DNA of 16,405 nt from a virus (taxonomy: Duplodnaviria; Heunggongvirae; Uroviricota; Caudoviricetes), in IMG/VR virus record IMGVR_UViG_2563366929_000009; one strand, given 5' to 3'. The translations under genes were made by a program, and so were the position numbers. Positions within the stretch are counted from its first letter, which is position 1. Each line of letters opens with the position of its first letter. The notes beneath the pieces were generated by a model. The model did not search any database. It was not told the DNA's origin and was given only the letters and a program-made list of their open reading frames with translations. Of this stretch, positions 1,422 to 7,395 are shown piece after piece.

Positions 1422-3893
1422 TTAAAAATCAGCCTGATTTGGGATCAGTTTTTGCCAGATAGCTGAAACGTATTTTGCCTGGTAACGGGCGTCATCAAGT
1501 GCATTATGGCGCTCACCTTCGAATGGAATAGCCGTTCTGGCATCGAAGTCTATGGCTTTCCCCAGCTCAACGATTGTGCGTACATCGCGATCGTTGTAGT
1601 AACGCCACGGGCAGGGGATCCCCTGCCGTTCGTATGAACGGCGCAAAATCGTGTTGTCGAAGTTGGCTCCATTTCCCCAAACCTGAACAAAAAATTCACC
1701 GGAGTTTTCGTCGATAAATTCCCGCAATTGTAACAGTGCATCATCTAACGGGATTTCATCGGTCATAATGGCAGATTGCGCTTCGCGTGATTGCTTAAGC
1801 CACCATTTAATGGTGTCCCGATCAATGACTCCGCCAGCAGTTTCCAGATCGATAGTCTTACTAAATTCCGGTCCCATATCTCCGGTTTGCGGATCGAAAA
1901 ATATTGCACCTATTGAGATGATCGGGGCATCAGGATTTTTTCCCATGGTTTCAAGGTCGATCATTAGATGGTCACACGTCCTGCTGGTGGATGTGATTTC
2001 GTGATGACCGTTCACCTTAATTGGGTGATCTGCCGTCTCGCCAGTTTCATTATCGCTATTGTGATGCTGATTGCCGCCAGTGTTCTCCTTGTGTGGATGT
2101 TCAGCGCCTTCCATTTCCTCCGGATCATCTTCCTGAACTTCAACCTGATACTCTTCATCGAATGTTTCTTGGTATGTTGCGTCGCCCATCACCGCGCCAC
2201 AATCAGGACAGTTGCCGCCGCCGGTCTGACCGCAGGCGGTGCAGGCTTTTTCCACTTCCTGGTGCGCCACTGGTTCAGGCTGTTTCGTTTCTGGCTCGTT
2301 TTGTAACGCATTTGGACTGTTTTGTTCCGCTTTTTGGTAGTTCCGTTCCGATTCATGCTGGTTCTGGCTCACAGAATCGCGGGTCTGGATCCCCTTAATC
2401 CATTTCGGATCATTCGGGTCACTAATCCCTTCAACAAATTCACCACGTGATGCAGCAAGCAACTTATCGGCGTCAGGCTGGCTGATATTGGCTGCCTGCA
2501 TAATTTTGTTTACTTCGTCAGCGGTAACTTTTATCGGCTCTGGTTGTTCTGAATCTTCAGCGGTATCTACATTTTGCGGTAAGCCCGTGTATGTGCCATT
2601 TTTTCGGGCAAAATATTCTTCTTTTGTGATTTCAGTGGCGCCAGCAGCCAGTGCCTTATCCAGACCAGAAAGTTTGTTTGCGCGACCGTATTTTTCTCCG
2701 TCCTTATCTGCGAAGAGGAAATAGAACGGCCCCTCACGCTCTACAGATGGTTCAGCTTCCGGCGCGGTTTCATTTTTTGGGATATCAGATACCTCAGTTT
2801 CCACTGCATCAGTTTGTGTTTCTGATGACTGGAGAACATCAACAGTGCCCAGGTCTGTTTCTTCATTCTCAAACACGCCCTTTGTCGTCAGGTATTCGCA
2901 GATATATTTGTTCAGTGCTACGGGATCTTTGTGAATGTCGATCGGACGCTCACGGACAAGGCCAAAAATAGTTTGGCGGTCGTAGCGAAGGGCATCAGGC
3001 TGTTTGCGCATTGATGCCGAGATACGCTTCCAGTCTTCGCGGTCGTTGTCGATAACTTCTTTTTTTGCCCAGCGATGGATGCTGCCGTCAATGTTTCCGG
3101 CATCCACATCACCAGGCCAGAGAGCGTAGGCCAGTTCGTCATCCAGTGTTTTCCATGTCTGCTTGTATTCGCGATGAATGGCAGCAATGACCGGGCTGAT
3201 TTTTCCTGTTGAATTTTCAGTGTACTGTTGATTGGCTCTGGCGCGGGCGAGATCAACAACAGACGTGTATTTTCCGGTTTCCTTGCGTTCACCTTCGCGA
3301 CGTTTTTTCCAGATGCGCATCTCTGCCTGAATTTCGGGCCATTTAGCACCAGGAATACATTTATGCTTAACCCACCCAATGGCGTGCAACTTAAGCTCCG
3401 GATACATGGCGTTAACTTCTGGCATTTTCATCAACGCTTCAACGATATGTCCGTCGAATGTTGCCATGTCTTCCTGCAACAATTCCTGTGCGCTAATAAC
3501 CATATCAACGGTGATGTTTTCACATGTGTCGAACTTAACCATGACAGCGTTCTGTACTTCAGGGGCCAGCTTGTCAAAAGTGACGTTCATCGGATCGGAT
3601 TCAGTCTCGACCGGAACAAAGGAAGCAGACGCCTCATCCCAGCGGTTTTCCTGCATATATTCAGCATCCCAGGAATCGAGGGCAGGGCGGGGTATACCGG
3701 GTTTATCCTCGCAAACAAGAAATTTATAAGCGCAGTCCTGAGCAGCCGGATAATGTTCCAGGAATTGCCAGTGAAATTTTGCGCGGGCGCGACGTTCATC
3801 ACCGGCTTCAATGGCAGTGGCTACAGCGACGGCACCTTCTTCCTTTATTGCCTGTTCGTCCGGAATGGCGGCGCAAATAAAGACTTTACTCAT
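1422..3893 (-). CDS. Phage exonuclease, large multidomain protein with C-terminal DnaQ-like (DEDDh) 3'-5' exonuclease domain
   Basis: 823-aa ORF with GAGG Shine-Dalgarno 8 nt upstream of ATG. C-terminal ~180 aa carry DEDDh motifs: Exo I MIDLETMG, Exo II WGNGANFD, Exo III HNALDDARYQ. Central C-x2-C-x7-C-x2-C zinc-ribbon-like motif (CTACGQTGGGNCPDCG) and an acidic/His-rich low-complexity linker. Position matches the exo slot of the lambdoid recombination module. Confidence 0.8.
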   Translation of the reverse strand: MSKVFICAAIPDEQAIKEEGAVAVATAIEAGDERRARAKFHWQFLEHYPAAQDCAYKFLVCEDKPGIPRPALDSWDAEYMQENRWDEASASFVPVETESDPMNVTFDKLAPEVQNAVMVKFDTCENITVDMVISAQELLQEDMATFDGHIVEALMKMPEVNAMYPELKLHAIGWVKHKCIPGAKWPEIQAEMRIWKKRREGERKETGKYTSVVDLARARANQQYTENSTGKISPVIAAIHREYKQTWKTLDDELAYALWPGDVDAGNIDGSIHRWAKKEVIDNDREDWKRISASMRKQPDALRYDRQTIFGLVRERPIDIHKDPVALNKYICEYLTTKGVFENEETDLGTVDVLQSSETQTDAVETEVSDIPKNETAPEAEPSVEREGPFYFLFADKDGEKYGRANKLSGLDKALAAGATEITKEEYFARKNGTYTGLPQNVDTAEDSEQPEPIKVTADEVNKIMQAANISQPDADKLLAASRGEFVEGISDPNDPKWIKGIQTRDSVSQNQHESERNYQKAEQNSPNALQNEPETKQPEPVAHQEVEKACTACGQTGGGNCPDCGAVMGDATYQETFDEEYQVEVQEDDPEEMEGAEHPHKENTGGNQHHNSDNETGETADHPIKVNGHHEITSTSRTCDHLMIDLETMGKNPDAPIISIGAIFFDPQTGDMGPEFSKTIDLETAGGVIDRDTIKWWLKQSREAQSAIMTDEIPLDDALLQLREFIDENSGEFFVQVWGNGANFDNTILRRSYERQGIPCPWRYYNDRDVRTIVELGKAIDFDARTAIPFEGERHNALDDARYQAKYVSAIWQKLIPNQADF

Positions 3894-3993
3894 TTTGTTT
3901 TACCTCATTACAGATTTAAGGGTGAACAAATCCCTGCCGGTGATGCTGCCAACTTACTGATTTAGTGTATGATGGTGTTTTTGAGGTGCTCCA

Positions 3994-4269
3994 GTGGCTT
4001 CTGTTTCTATCAGCTGTCCCTCCTGTTCAGCTACTGACGGGGTGGTGCGTAACGGCAAAAGCACCGCCGGACATCAGCGCTATCTCTGCTCTCACTGCCG
4101 TAAAACATGGCAACTGCAGTTCACTTACACCGCTTCTCAACCCGGTACGTACCAGAAAATCATTGATATGGCCATGAATGGCGTTGGATGCCGGGCAACA
4201 GCCCGCATTATGGGCGTTGGCCTCAACACGATTTTACGTCACTTAAAAAACTCAGGCCGCAGTCGGTAA
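3994..4269 (+). CDS. insA: IS1 InsA (transposition inhibitor / N-terminal part of InsAB' transposase)
   Basis: 91-aa [27 protein letters not shown].. recognised as IS1 InsA. Confidence 0.9.
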
Positions 4270-4691
4270 CCTCGCGCATACAGCCGGGCAGTGATGTGAT
4301 TGTCTGCGCTGAAATGGACGAACAGTGGGGCTATGTCGGGGCTAAATCGCGCCAGCGCTGGCTGTTTTACGCGTATGACAGGCTCCGGAAGACGGTTGTT
4401 GCGCACGTATTCGGTGAACGCACTATGGCGACGCTGGGGCGTCTTATGAGCCTGCTGTCACCCTTTGACGTGGTGATATGGATGACGGATGGCTGGCCGC
4501 TGTATGAATCCCGCCTGAAGGGAAAGCTGCACGTAATCAGCAAGCGATATACGCAGCGAATTGAGCGGCATAACCTGAATCTGAGGCAGCACCTGGCACG
4601 GCTGGGACGGAAGTCGCTGTCGTTCTCAAAATCGGTGGAGCTGCATGACAAAGTCATCGGGCATTATCTGAACATAAAACACTATCAATAA
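4188..4691 (+). CDS. insB: IS1 InsB' reading frame (expressed as InsAB' transposase by -1 frameshift)
   Basis: -1 frame relative to insA and overlapping its 3' end; A6C slippery motif at 4243..4251. Sequence ..[30 protein letters not shown].. is typical IS1 InsB. Confidence 0.88.
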
Positions 4692-4784
4692 GTTGGAGTC
4701 ATTACCGAGAAAGATGATGTCTACATAGCCAATTGTATAGAAAAAGGTAAGACTGAATTTAAAGTAAGCAAAGATATTGCTGCG

Positions 4785-5159
4785 TTGCCTTTCAAGGGTG
4801 AACCCATCGAGAAAATTAGGGGAGAGCTAATCAGGTCAATCAAGGAACACTTGATCAGTGCAAGCTGGCATAGCACTAAAAAGGTAATCGACCGCTATGA
4901 AGCTACATTCGATATAAAAGTACAAAAAGACTGTCCGATAGAAGCTATTGAATTGGCAACCCTCAATCGAAATCACTTAGTGCATCGTGGTGGAAAGGAT
5001 AAAGAAGGGAACCTCGTAGTGATTACAGACCAGGATCTTGAAACGCTGATTGAAAATGCATCGAACCTGGCAATTATGCTCTACAACAGTTTAAATGTAG
5101 CAACGAATAAAACCACCATTTTGCAACCAGATGACAAACCGTTCATTCATGAATTTTAA
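4785..5159 (+). CDS. Hypothetical protein, probably a 5'-truncated remnant (frame open back to the IS1 junction at 4707)
   Basis: ORF-track start is TTG with no Shine-Dalgarno. The same frame stays open upstream to the insB stop at 4689..4691, with no ATG or GTG in between. AT-rich codon composition unlike the flanking prophage genes. No recognisable family motif. Confidence 0.45.
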   Translation: MPFKGEPIEKIRGELIRSIKEHLISASWHSTKKVIDRYEATFDIKVQKDCPIEAIELATLNRNHLVHRGGKDKEGNLVVITDQDLETLIENASNLAIMLYNSLNVATNKTTILQPDDKPFIHEF

Positions 5160-5174
5160 TAGCGCAGGTCATAC

Positions 5175-6176
5175 ATGGATATTCGCACACGAAAGACAAA
5201 ATTTTTAGAGTCGTTAGATTCAACTGAAGTGATACGCAAAGCAGTAAGTCTCGCTATAGATTGCATTATTGATAATCATAATAGTAATGAAGATACCCCC
5301 TTAGTTATTACCAGCTATGATGATCTCTGTAGAATCCAGGTGCTAAATTATGTACAGGAGTTTTGCGAAGCTGCATTCCCTGATATGGATGAATATTACT
5401 TTAGTCCTAACATACTTCGCATCAACGGCAAGACTAGTGAAGAAGCTTGTATTAACTTAATTAAACTCTTAAGAAGTACAAAAGGCATGCTATTCTGGTC
5501 CGATGCCCCATCGTGGTTCGCTAGCCTCCCCGACGGATTATTCCATGTTGTTAACATTGATCAAAAAATCGTTACTCGCGGCCTTAATAAGAAAAACTCT
5601 AAGCCGACAATAATCAATAAAGATTACAGTGTAGATACACTACTATCAGAGCTATTTTTGAATGGCGCACACATGGAGCAACCCAACGTACACAACGTTT
5701 CTGAGGGAAACATGAAGTTCTATGATGAATGCCATGCTGGATTAATCAGACCAATACCCGCTCCAATAGGCGCGTCATACGATGAAGAGATCACAATTAA
5801 TTCTCCAGATTGGCAAAAGCTCGCGTGTGTAGCTTTACGCCGCTATCAGTCGAAGGAATGTCATGACGGAATGCAATGGGATACAACCGATCATGGTTGG
5901 ACTGATGTAATCGCGTATCCATTCGTCGAAGAAATACAATCAATGGATAATAGTGGTTATCGACAATGTTTAGTTGGGCTGGTCACAATAAACAATTCAA
6001 ATGCAAATTCTCCGTACCTATCTACCGTTTGGATACATCCATTTTATCGCAGGAGAGGGTTATTAAGTAAGTTATGGCCAAAATTACAAGAGTTATATGG
6101 AAGTAACTTCGAAATTGAGCGACCTAATGAAAATATGAAAGCATTTCTGAAAAGTGCGAAACACGCAGATTACTAA
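5175..6176 (+). CDS. Hypothetical 333-aa protein with a C-terminal GNAT-acetyltransferase-like motif
   Basis: ATG with weak AGGT Shine-Dalgarno 5 nt upstream. Visibly AT-rich. C-terminal segment LVGLVTINN..YLSTVWIHPFYRRRGLLSKLWPKL resembles GNAT motif A (beta4-alpha3, V.P..RR.G). The N-terminal ~230 aa are unrecognised. Confidence 0.7.
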   Translation: MDIRTRKTKFLESLDSTEVIRKAVSLAIDCIIDNHNSNEDTPLVITSYDDLCRIQVLNYVQEFCEAAFPDMDEYYFSPNILRINGKTSEEACINLIKLLRSTKGMLFWSDAPSWFASLPDGLFHVVNIDQKIVTRGLNKKNSKPTIINKDYSVDTLLSELFLNGAHMEQPNVHNVSEGNMKFYDECHAGLIRPIPAPIGASYDEEITINSPDWQKLACVALRRYQSKECHDGMQWDTTDHGWTDVIAYPFVEEIQSMDNSGYRQCLVGLVTINNSNANSPYLSTVWIHPFYRRRGLLSKLWPKLQELYGSNFEIERPNENMKAFLKSAKHADY

Positions 6177-6492
6177 TTTATGAATCAGTCTGTGGAGTTA
6201 GGGTTGGTGTCAACAAGTAGGGTAAGAGCCTCAACGTGATGCTATGCCGACCTGCTCCCTGAGAATTCACACAGAAGGCTGCTAGCAATGTCTGCAGATC
6301 GCTCAAAGCGGACTAGAAGGTTAGCTTGCGTCGGACTTGGCGTATTTAAAGAAGTGCTGGTGGTGACTGGTTGTTGTGTTCCATTTCTACAGAACAAAAT
6401 CACAGAAACTATACCCAATAGTTATATTGAATCAATGATGAGACAGCCTCATATTTATCAGAACTGGTGTACGTCCAATACAGGAGGTTGTC

Positions 6493-6582
6493 GTGCTGGT
6501 TCTCAAATGTGCGCTAGCTATTGCGGCTGTAATGGCAATTTATTGTCTTGCTGTTGTTCTTATGGATCGCCTTTCTGATTGA
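6493..6582 (+). CDS. Candidate small hydrophobic peptide (29 aa: MLVLKCALAIAAVMAIYCLAVVLMDRLSD if GTG is read as Met)
   Basis: Near-consensus Shine-Dalgarno AGGAGG at 6482..6487, 5 nt before GTG at 6493. Single predicted transmembrane helix plus short charged tail. Possible -35 TTGAAT / -10 CATATT about 40-60 nt upstream. Below the ORF-track size cutoff. Confidence 0.3.
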   Translation: MLVLKCALAIAAVMAIYCLAVVLMDRLSD

Positions 6583-6793
6583 TTTTATATTGGCGAGGTG
6601 ACGGGAGTTAAGTAGAATTGCTGCGGGTGCTTGAGGCTATCTGCCTCAGGCATGAACACCAAAGGCAGATAGAGAAAAGCCCCAGTTAATATTACGCGTC
6701 CTGCAAGACGCTTAACATTAATCTGAGGCTCAATCTATGAACGGCAAATCTAGGTTAGCCTCTTACGTGCCGAAAGGCAAGGAGAAGCAGGCT

Positions 6794-6949
6794 ATGAAGC
6801 AGCAAAAGGCGATGTTAATCGCCCTGATCGTCATCTGTTTAACCGTCATAGTGACGGCACTGGTAACGAGGAAAGACCTCTGCGAGGTACGAATCCGAAC
6901 CGGCCAGACGGAGGTCGCTGTCTTCACAGTTTACGAACCTGAGGAGTAA
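6794..6949 (+). CDS. hokD: Hok/Gef-family type I toxin (HokD/RelF-like, 51 aa)
   Basis: MKQQKAMLIALIVICLTVIVTALVTRKDLCEVRIRTGQTEVAVFTVYEPEE is near-identical to my recollection of HokD. GGAGA Shine-Dalgarno 9 nt upstream. The in-frame upstream extension from 6737 (ORF-track 70-aa ORF) may be a mok-like leader ORF. Hairpin GGCGAGGG-agaaat-CCCTCGCC follows the stop, as at hok mRNA 3' ends. Confidence 0.85.
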   Translation: MKQQKAMLIALIVICLTVIVTALVTRKDLCEVRIRTGQTEVAVFTVYEPEE

Positions 6950-6987
6950 GAGACCCGGCGAGGGAGAAATCCCTCGCCACCTCTGAT

Positions 6988-7395
6988 GTGTCAGGCATCC
7001 TCAACGCACCCGCACGTAACCCGCTTCGGCGGGTTTTGTTTTTTCCTGGCATTCTGGTTTACAATTCGCACGCCAGCCTGAACAACTGGCACCTGCTGCG
7101 CCAGCAGAGACAACCGATGGCGCACGATACCAAATTACACAATTCTGATGATTCTGCCGTCTTTGCCAGCAGGCACGGGCGGCGTTCCCGCACTTTCAAA
7201 TCTGACTGGTTCCAGCATCCCCCATGCACTGAAGAACAGGCCGAGTGGCTAATTCAGTGCTACCGCAGACACGGATACGAGATTAAGAAAGCCCTCAGCC
7301 TCGATTATCGTCACTGGATAATCTCCGTCAGGCTTCCTTACTCCGAACGATCACCGCGTCCGTCCCGCACATTCCAGCAACGCATCTGGAGGTAA
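6988..7395 (+). CDS. Hypothetical protein (start uncertain: GTG 6988 or ATG 7117); occupies the rem-like slot between hok and the DUF968 gene
   Basis: Open frame ending at TAA 7393..7395, one nucleotide before the downstream gene; that gene's GGAGG Shine-Dalgarno lies inside its 3' end. GC-rich composition like neighbouring prophage genes. No family recognised. Confidence 0.4.
   Translation: MSGILNAPARNPLRRVLFFPGILVYNSHASLNNWHLLRQQRQPMAHDTKLHNSDDSAVFASRHGRRSRTFKSDWFQHPPCTEEQAEWLIQCYRRHGYEIKKALSLDYRHWIISVRLPYSERSPRPSRTFQQRIWR

Follow-up and report, generated by a model that had tools for sequence, protein, structure and literature searches.

A 29-codon gene for a predicted membrane peptide at the edge of the hok cassette in Escherichia coli prophages

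Does the DNA just upstream of hok in an Escherichia coli lambdoid prophage hold a gene that annotation has passed over, and, if so, what kind of product does that gene encode? The question is raised by a 16,405-nt sequence (IMG/VR record IMGVR_UViG_2563366929_000009, Caudoviricetes; its whole length is called the window below), in which a first-pass annotation made from the letters alone had marked, beside a hok locus, an unannotated gene for a 29-residue hydrophobic peptide with an architecture typical of type I toxins and small membrane regulators. The window is part of such a prophage, and around the small gene its sequence shows 100% identity to UTI89 and to many further extra-intestinal pathogenic strains. 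Purifying selection on the frame, together with published start-site and ribosome profiling of the family to which it belongs, indicates that the hydrophobic-peptide gene is very probably real.

The gene opens with a GTG at position 6493, runs for 29 sense codons and ends with the TGA at 6580–6582; its product is MLVLKCALAIAAVMAIYCLAVVLMDRLSD. All of the elements that the first-pass annotation had read around this start are present, namely AGGAGG 5 nt before the GTG, the 29-codon frame and a pair of promoter-like hexamers located 38–66 nt upstream of the GTG:

6493–6582, plus strand: small gene with GTG start, TGA stop and 29 codons; the frame is intact across copies, and the BL21(DE3) orthologue has been called by retapamulin profiling.
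6482–6487, plus strand: Shine–Dalgarno sequence AGGAGG, followed by the 5-nt spacer TTGTC and then the GTG.
6427–6432, plus strand: putative −35 hexamer TTGAAT of the small gene, read from the sequence and conserved; part of a presumed promoter.
6450–6455, plus strand: putative −10 hexamer CATATT of the small gene, 17 nt past the −35; transcription is predicted to start near 6461–6463.

The pairing of ribosome-binding site and frame goes beyond chance. AGGAGG occurs at five sites in the 16.4-kb window when both strands are counted, and only the small-gene site is followed, 4–9 nt downstream, by a start codon that opens at least 25 codons; the frame also passes an evolutionary test of coding, described next. 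The Shine–Dalgarno sequence is retained in all lineages as AGGAGG, AGGAGA or GGAGA.

The frame evolves as a protein. Copies with 74–100% DNA identity were gathered from E. coli chromosomes, phages, plasmids and viral contigs; 36 distinct copies form the close-copy set, 10 diverged copies were aligned separately, and the ratio of nonsynonymous to synonymous substitution rates (dN/dS) was calculated by the method of Nei and Gojobori. Over the 90 nt of the 10-copy alignment, 14 synonymous and 8 conservative nonsynonymous changes are found in the small-gene frame; the other five frames give 3–8 synonymous against 12–18 nonsynonymous changes. The 29 codons and the stop are kept in all 36 close copies, among which variable sites at codon positions 1, 2 and 3 number 10, 3 and 17, respectively, and 31 of the 90 sites of the open reading frame (ORF) vary, compared with 52 of 70 in the upstream flank and 24 of 35 in the downstream flank. 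Conservation of the peptide frame had been named in the first-pass annotation as a check on the gene, and dN/dS bears it out with values of 0.10–0.25 in the most diverged pairs: 0.16 against the copy from Shigella plasmids (dS 0.74), 0.14 against the L009 copy, and 0.10 between the Shigella and L009 copies (dS 1.18). Amino acid replacements are conservative (A/V/T, V/I, D/E, M/V and R/H), and length and stop are retained up to a dS of about 1.2. A third lineage, represented by L106, has 74% DNA identity and carries 10 synonymous and 7 nonsynonymous codon changes with the GTG and the stop unchanged.

The 10-copy alignment also delimits the conserved unit, whose core begins at the −35 hexamer and ends a few nucleotides beyond the stop codon. 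Four copies carry entirely different sequence left of the −35, and two do so right of the stop, with recombination breakpoints at the −35 and just past the stop. The 96-residue Cys-rich ORF that overlaps the small gene in another frame (6288–6578), and that had been regarded from the outset as probably spurious, is spurious: its open length ranges from 52 to 96 codons across copies, and its frame shows 4 synonymous against 16 nonsynonymous changes in the 10 diverged copies. A more diverged allele of the small gene (VLALTCVLAIVAVLVIYCLVVAFMERFSD...) was seen in strain MEI4B-1023 (L102, about 2060–2170), where a short deletion takes out the stop and the frame runs 6 codons further into the hok −35 region.

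Members of the family are translated, as published start-site and ribosome profiling shows. Fesenko et al. (bioRxiv 2024, PMC11188072) re-analysed the BL21(DE3) data that Meydan et al. had obtained by retapamulin start-site profiling. Table S4 of the re-analysis lists NC_012971.2 1591437–1591524 on the minus strand, product VLVLKCTLAIVAVMAIYCLVIVLMDHLSD; 13 reads mark the start site, and 38 footprint reads cover 90% of the frame. The same study places VLVLKCTLAIVAVMAIYCLVIVLMDHLSD in its purifying-selection set (cluster Escherichia_98807, dN/dS 0.46). This product is the orthologue of the window peptide, being 83% identical, initiated at the homologous GTG and encoded upstream of hokD in BL21(DE3), where it is not annotated in RefSeq. 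Cluster Escherichia_98807 of Entero67K and the window gene thus agree in family, GTG start, position upstream of hokD, purifying selection and retapamulin call; they differ in that the BL21(DE3) member has had its own promoter deleted. In the paper the cluster is one row among 67,297, and its function, its link to hok and the Shigella copies are not discussed (PMC11188072).

A second line of data concerns a paralogue. Huecker et al. (PLoS One 2017, PMC5597208) reported XECs145 among 465 translated intergenic ORFs of the O157:H7 strain Sakai. In lysogeny broth, XECs145 gave 79 reads per kilobase per million (RPKM) for RNA and 346 RPKM for footprints, a footprint coverage of 0.99 and a ribosome coverage value of 4.35, compared with a mean of 1.55 in short annotated genes, and it was predicted to be an inner-membrane protein with one helix (PMC5597208). 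XECs145 contains the 34-residue peptide MSDDISLAMEGALAVIAVVGVYCLVVFLMDRLGN, which is now annotated as ECs_5710 in Sakai prophage Sp6, directly upstream of mok/hok. By profile–profile comparison, the 34-residue and 29-residue types are homologous (hhalign probability 97.3%, E = 2e-11). ECs_5710/XECs145 resembles the window gene in its slot and orientation before mok/hok and in its single predicted transmembrane helix, and is unlike it in sequence (46–56% identity), ATG start, acidic N-terminal extension (MSDD) and lack of its own promoter; it also has a translationally coupled hydrophobic ORF of 25–27 residues ahead of it and a palindrome past its stop. This second small ORF (ending AIAFLVYVICRWG) was seen upstream of the paralogue in L103 (2388–2500), in L014 (1864–1947) and in Sakai (NC_002695.2); in L103 the stop of the upstream gene and the ATG of this ORF overlap as ATGA. 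The palindrome following the pair reads TATGGGAATTCCCATA, and the XECs145 footprint coverage takes in both frames.

Two large surveys of small ORFs and a few annotations already list the family, uncharacterised. A literature search by peptide sequence and accession returned no main-text mention, and the relevant data stand in supplementary tables only. The description of the gene as unannotated holds for the RefSeq records identical to the window, and it fails elsewhere: RefSeq WP_000960667.1, a "hypothetical protein" from the Prokaryotic Genome Annotation Pipeline, is one variant with the same GTG start and 29 codons; GenBank entries label the gene "membrane protein" or "conserved hypothetical protein" (for example, ACT39199.1 of REL606); and Prokka called the frame on the Shigella plasmid pWR100. 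In RefSeq complete E. coli genomes, the 160-bp module that holds the gene is almost always without an annotated feature. It was found in 1959 of 5426 complete E. coli genomes, with at least 80% of the module covered in 1847.

Beyond the chromosome, tblastn located an ATG-initiated copy, 79% identical, on virulence plasmids, 124 of them from Shigella and several from E. coli; the Shigella copies are on the virulence plasmids of all four Shigella species. Its position is 290 nt upstream of icsP, and past it come the hok promoter and a truncated stretch of hok leader. The region 250–410 nt upstream of Shigella icsP (sopA) is itself a relic of a prophage segment (L011, pWR501, 2925–3200; pWR100, CP037924, about 90800–91030) that contains the promoter hexamers, the intact ATG-start small gene, the hok promoter and, from the hok leader, a degenerate stretch of about 90 nt; no mention of such a relic was found in the icsP literature searched.

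The family is restricted to Escherichia and Shigella and comprises three lineages of 29, 30 and 34 residues. A word-indexed protein search, for which a 40-residue in-frame translation of the window served as the query because the 29-residue peptide is too short, returned Escherichia entries only, and when 1.84 billion representatives were searched exhaustively with a profile, 17 matched, all from the same family and none a remote relative. A scan of one genome per species likewise found the gene in Escherichia and Shigella only, besides a few short metagenome-bin contigs under other genera. Three of the short contigs, L015, L018 and L019, come from bins labelled Collinsella, Candidatus Scatousia and Haemophilus; their peptides are 96–100% identical, and they are most likely mis-binned E. 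coli prophage DNA. Searches of Pfam, NCBIfam, PHROGs and PADLOC with the 29-residue and 34-residue peptides produced no meaningful match.

The position of the gene is as constant as its frame. It is the last gene before the prophage hok/sok cassette, in the same orientation, and this arrangement also holds in BL21, Sakai, L103 and L106. In 98 of 101 sampled loci, hok or a hok relic lies no more than 300 nt downstream; in L004, L009 and L016 a DUF1971 gene region takes the place of hok and the small gene is intact. Around the small gene, the order is an IS1-interrupted hypothetical gene, the gene for a 333-residue protein (5175–6176), a 560-bp stretch that is empty in RefSeq, and hokD, which is the RefSeq annotation at the homologous place in UTI89; 3′ of hokD follow a hypothetical gene, a DUF968 gene, rusA and the Q antiterminator. 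That a hok locus adjoins the small gene was confirmed by the hok promoter and by the Rfam match to the hok/sok leader. The surrounding features are as follows:

6299–6426, no strand assigned: upstream block, which accompanies the small gene in most copies and is replaced in others.
6590–6618, plus strand: hok promoter TTGGCG-17-TAGAAT, beginning 8 nt past the small-gene stop and placed correctly for the hok mRNA 5′ end at 6625.
6625–6799, plus strand: hok mRNA leader and sok target region (Rfam RF01794, 113.3 bits, E = 1.2e-26), a neighbour lying outside the small gene.
6737–6949, plus strand: mok frame of 70 codons, with hok (51 codons, 6794 to 6949) in frame within it.

Homology to the hok loci of other phages, such as hokW of 933W, starts only at about 6605, which places the small frame outside the classical hok locus. 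The block at 6299–6426 is present in 87 of the 101 sampled loci, is replaced in L002, L008, L009 and L010, and carries a 14-nt deletion in L006 and L007; no conserved ORF was found in it among the copies. The slot directly upstream of the small gene is a hot spot for cargo. In the window it holds the gene for the 333-residue protein, which has a weak GNAT match (5175–6176), and elsewhere (L005–L010, L101, L102 and L106) it holds SIR2, DUF4145, QueH, S-adenosylmethionine methyltransferases, a dATP/dGTP pyrophosphohydrolase or ORF6N. Such cargo may consist of defence or accessory genes. The IS1 element (Pfam IS1 transposase, E = 2e-78; window 3965–4700 and 4785–5159) splits a 320-residue hypothetical gene that is intact in UTI89, and only its last 124 codons survive as an ORF in the window. 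A match to the isrK small-RNA family at 6958–7039 stays below threshold (27.8 bits against a gathering score of 50) and ends in a good intrinsic terminator at 7018–7035; the stretch probably represents no more than the 3′ end of the hok mRNA. Automatic annotation has also placed minus-strand ORFs over the small gene, at 1954–2243 of L002 (phage HannyBb) and as a RAST coding sequence at 90749–91021 of pWR100, and, judged by frame analysis, both look like miscalls occupying the space of the overlooked 29-codon gene.

How the gene would be transcribed was judged from the upstream hexamers. TTGA[AG][TG] and CATATT are found at a fixed spacing of 17 nt in 31 of the 36 distinct copies, and CATATT is invariant wherever the −35 is present, the Shigella plasmid copy included. 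The sequence of the spacer varies freely; because the hexamers are conserved while the spacer drifts, they probably constitute a promoter. Downstream, no terminator was found between the small gene and hok, the only terminator-like sites being at 6517–6536, within the ORF, and at 7018–7035, past hok. The hairpin at 6517–6536 was rejected as a terminator, since it is not conserved and its substitutions are uncompensated. With no terminator before hok, read-through across the hok promoter is likely. Features of a leader peptide or attenuator were also sought; the stop and the hok −35 are just 8 nt apart, and neither a hairpin with a T run nor a significant fold was found. The mRNA of most copies would originate at a weak sigma-70 promoter belonging to the gene itself; where that promoter is missing, read-through from upstream phage genes would provide the mRNA. 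The transcript would run on over the hok promoter.

The peptide itself has a grand average of hydropathicity (GRAVY) of 1.81, and its best 19-residue window reaches 2.70. A predicted transmembrane helix covers approximately residues 2–24 and is followed by a short conserved tail, L-M-[D/E]-R-x-[S/G]-[D/N]. The core common to both types is ALA[IV]xAVxx[IV]YCLxVxLM[DE]R, in which Y17, C18, L19 and M24 are invariant across the 29-residue and 34-residue types; small residues are spaced along the helix, and the tail is shared down to 46% identity. These three features, the invariant central Y-C-L, the spaced small residues and the conserved tail, suggest a helix-packing mode of action.

Based on these data, the explanation that accounts best for the locus, and in which we place moderate confidence, is that of a lambdoid-prophage accessory gene whose product is a single-pass inner-membrane microprotein, carried alongside the hok cassette, that would bind a partner and be non-lethal. 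Translation would begin at GTG 6493 from the consensus ribosome-binding site, the peptide would insert into the inner membrane, and there it would act by helix–helix contact with a putative partner. Its action would resemble that of the small membrane-protein modulators rather than that of a Hok-like killer held under antisense RNA. AcrZ, MgtR, MgtS, MgrB, CydX and KdpF are single-helix peptides of 29–50 residues that are translated in growing cells and bind a larger membrane protein. The window peptide is like them in size and in having one transmembrane helix, and no sequence similarity to modulators of this type was found. The modulators differ in being chromosomal and in being encoded beside, or co-regulated with, their partner, whereas here the sole membrane-protein neighbour is Hok. 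The unit can also be likened to prophage morons, with which it shares its compactness (about 160 bp), promoter-like hexamers, breakpoints at both ends, an adjacent variable cargo slot and a paralogue expressed in lysogens; unlike morons, it has no terminator of its own, and its promoter is dispensable in several lineages.

Several observations weigh against this account. The upstream hexamers share 8 of 12 positions with the sigma-70 consensus and fall short of the threshold of a promoter scan, as would befit a weak promoter. The −35 is changed to TCTCAT in five distinct copies (17 loci), and the promoter is gone altogether in the 30-residue lineage (L106) and in BL21(DE3). In the Shigella M90T map obtained by differential RNA sequencing, which records icsP starts at 90709 and 90726 on the minus strand, no start appears in 90800–91199, where the homologous pWR100 promoter would fire (PMC7132871). 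The start-site signal in BL21, 13 reads, is low and near that of the weakest validated small proteins in the same table, in which K-12 hokD has 49 and 171 start-site reads (PMC11188072). Since a known toxin gene, K-12 hokD, also has start-site reads, translation during growth is compatible with toxicity. The strongest translation data come from a paralogue that is just 46–56% identical to the window peptide. Finally, the N-terminal charge differs between the types (K5 as opposed to D3/D4/E10), and membrane topology is accordingly not predictable with confidence. Of the promoter that the first-pass annotation had proposed, the conservation of the hexamers in 31 of 36 copies stands; its 8-of-12 match, its loss from intact copies and the missing start on pWR100 count against it. 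The promoter is best regarded, from these sequence comparisons, as probable but dispensable, and BL21(DE3), which lacks it, still shows initiation at the GTG in the published retapamulin data. In the BL21(DE3) locus (L107, NC_012971.2 1591434–1591560), compared with L010 from E. coli B, the cargo genes and the small-gene promoter are lost, and a DUF977 (ren-like) gene extends with its 3′ end over the first 40 nt of the small gene.

The reading toward which the first-pass annotation had leaned, a type I toxin, would make the product a membrane-damaging peptide whose translation is normally blocked by an antisense small RNA yet to be found. A small hydrophobic single-helix peptide with a strong ribosome-binding site, encoded in a prophage next to another type I toxin, fits that description, and the peptide is alike in size, single hydrophobic helix and mobile-element location to Hok/Gef, Ldr, Ibs, TisB, ShoB, DinQ and ZorO. 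The translation detected in growing cells fits a toxin too, given the reads on hokD, and for the same reason little weight attaches to the counterargument that the paralogue is translated above the average of short annotated genes in healthy cultures. What speaks against the reading is the lack of the expected RNA features. The window does contain a promoter-like TTAACT-18-TAAAAT on the minus strand (6611–6582) that points into the 3′ end of the small gene, but this site occurs in only about half of the distinct copies; elsewhere a T-to-C substitution destroys its −10, and neither the three hok-less copies nor pINV have it. The window also yielded no antisense terminator. As a candidate antisense promoter it was rejected, the hok-less copies carrying no minus-strand promoter past the stop codon. 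A divergent small RNA from TTGATT-16-TATAGT (minus strand, 6435–6408) was rejected as well, with the block absent in several lineages and no excess complementarity: for the hypothetical RNA starting at 6401, 50.7% of shuffles equal or beat the energy of its duplex with the translation start region. Type I toxin mRNAs, such as those of hok, tisB, zorO and dinQ, are typically highly structured, with the ribosome-binding site sequestered. The putative small-gene mRNA has a predicted leader of about 30 nt and folds like its shuffles, at a minimum free energy of −43.5 kcal/mol where the shuffled sequences average −41.96 (z = −0.40), with the ribosome-binding site outside any stable helix; the antisense strand gives z = +0.56. 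Rfam finds no RNA family over the small gene, a minus-strand "sok" match at 6561–6683 scoring 19.9 bits, far under threshold. No toxin family in Pfam, NCBIfam, PHROGs or PADLOC matches the peptide, and homology to Hok was discarded (no Pfam match at E values up to 10, PF01848 included; hhalign probability against the neighbouring Hok 1.1%). Unlike the type I toxins, the gene thus has no conserved antisense or divergent RNA signal, structured leader, mok-like coupling frame or sequence relationship. On these sequence grounds the toxin reading is not supported, and we consider it rather unlikely.

Two further explanations turn on the neighbouring hok and on the DNA itself. The peptide could be a protein-level partner of Hok, as an immunity or damping peptide, a helper or a co-toxin, in a three-part unit of small ORF, hok and sok. 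Hok or its relic is nearly always within 300 nt downstream (98 of 101 loci), the 29-, 30- and 34-residue lineages all occupy the same slot and orientation right before the hok promoter, the 8-nt distance between the small-gene stop and the hok −35 lies in a conserved junction (TGAtttcatattggcg), and co-transcription with hok is possible with no terminator between them. Adjacency, however, is explicable by synteny of the prophage backbone, to which rem, DUF968, rusA and Q are linked equally. Most hok loci do without the gene (the hok part of the query is present in 4334 genomes, the small gene in 1959), and no copy stands at hokW of phage 933W or at K-12 hokD. Conversely, the gene is intact without hok in L004, L009 and L016 and persists beside a truncated hok relic on Shigella pINV, and one Hok protein, WP_000813254.1, pairs with both the 29-residue and the 34-residue types, so that no co-variation is seen. 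A partnership with Hok appears quite improbable. The last alternative holds that the peptide is functionless, the stretch being kept as regulatory DNA or RNA for hok or for the upstream cargo and its translation being incidental or relevant only in cis. The abutment on the hok promoter, the young and narrow family (Escherichia and Shigella, 17 representatives among 1.84 billion proteins) and the low start-site signal in BL21 are in keeping with it, as is the report that most translated intergenic small ORFs show no selection (Fesenko et al., PMC11188072). It does not account for substitutions that concentrate at third codon positions, for conservative replacements with length and stop kept to a dS of about 1.2, or for an ORF less variable than its flanks; the protein motif YCLxVxLM[DE]R survives at 46% identity, a divergence at which the DNA can no longer be aligned, and the gene persists in copies that have lost hok. 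That the peptide has no function of its own is very improbable.

The preferred reading therefore remains that of a non-lethal, partner-binding membrane microprotein, and as a small membrane protein the product belongs to a known class. The interest of the gene is moderate and comes from its wide distribution, its escape from annotation and its tight placement beside hok. It is carried by about one-third of complete E. coli genomes and by the virulence plasmids of all four Shigella species, yet standard annotation skips nearly all copies; the case shows how real small membrane-protein genes are lost and how the gap is then filled by spurious longer frames, such as the 96-residue ORF and the minus-strand calls on HannyBb and, by RAST, on pWR100. 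The fixed place of the gene at the border between the cargo slot and hok/sok raises the question of a protein partner for the prophage hok locus. If true, such a partnership would add protein-level control to hok/sok, a system understood as purely RNA-controlled. Even without a link to Hok, the gene would represent a widely carried, uncharacterised membrane microprotein of pathogenic E. coli.

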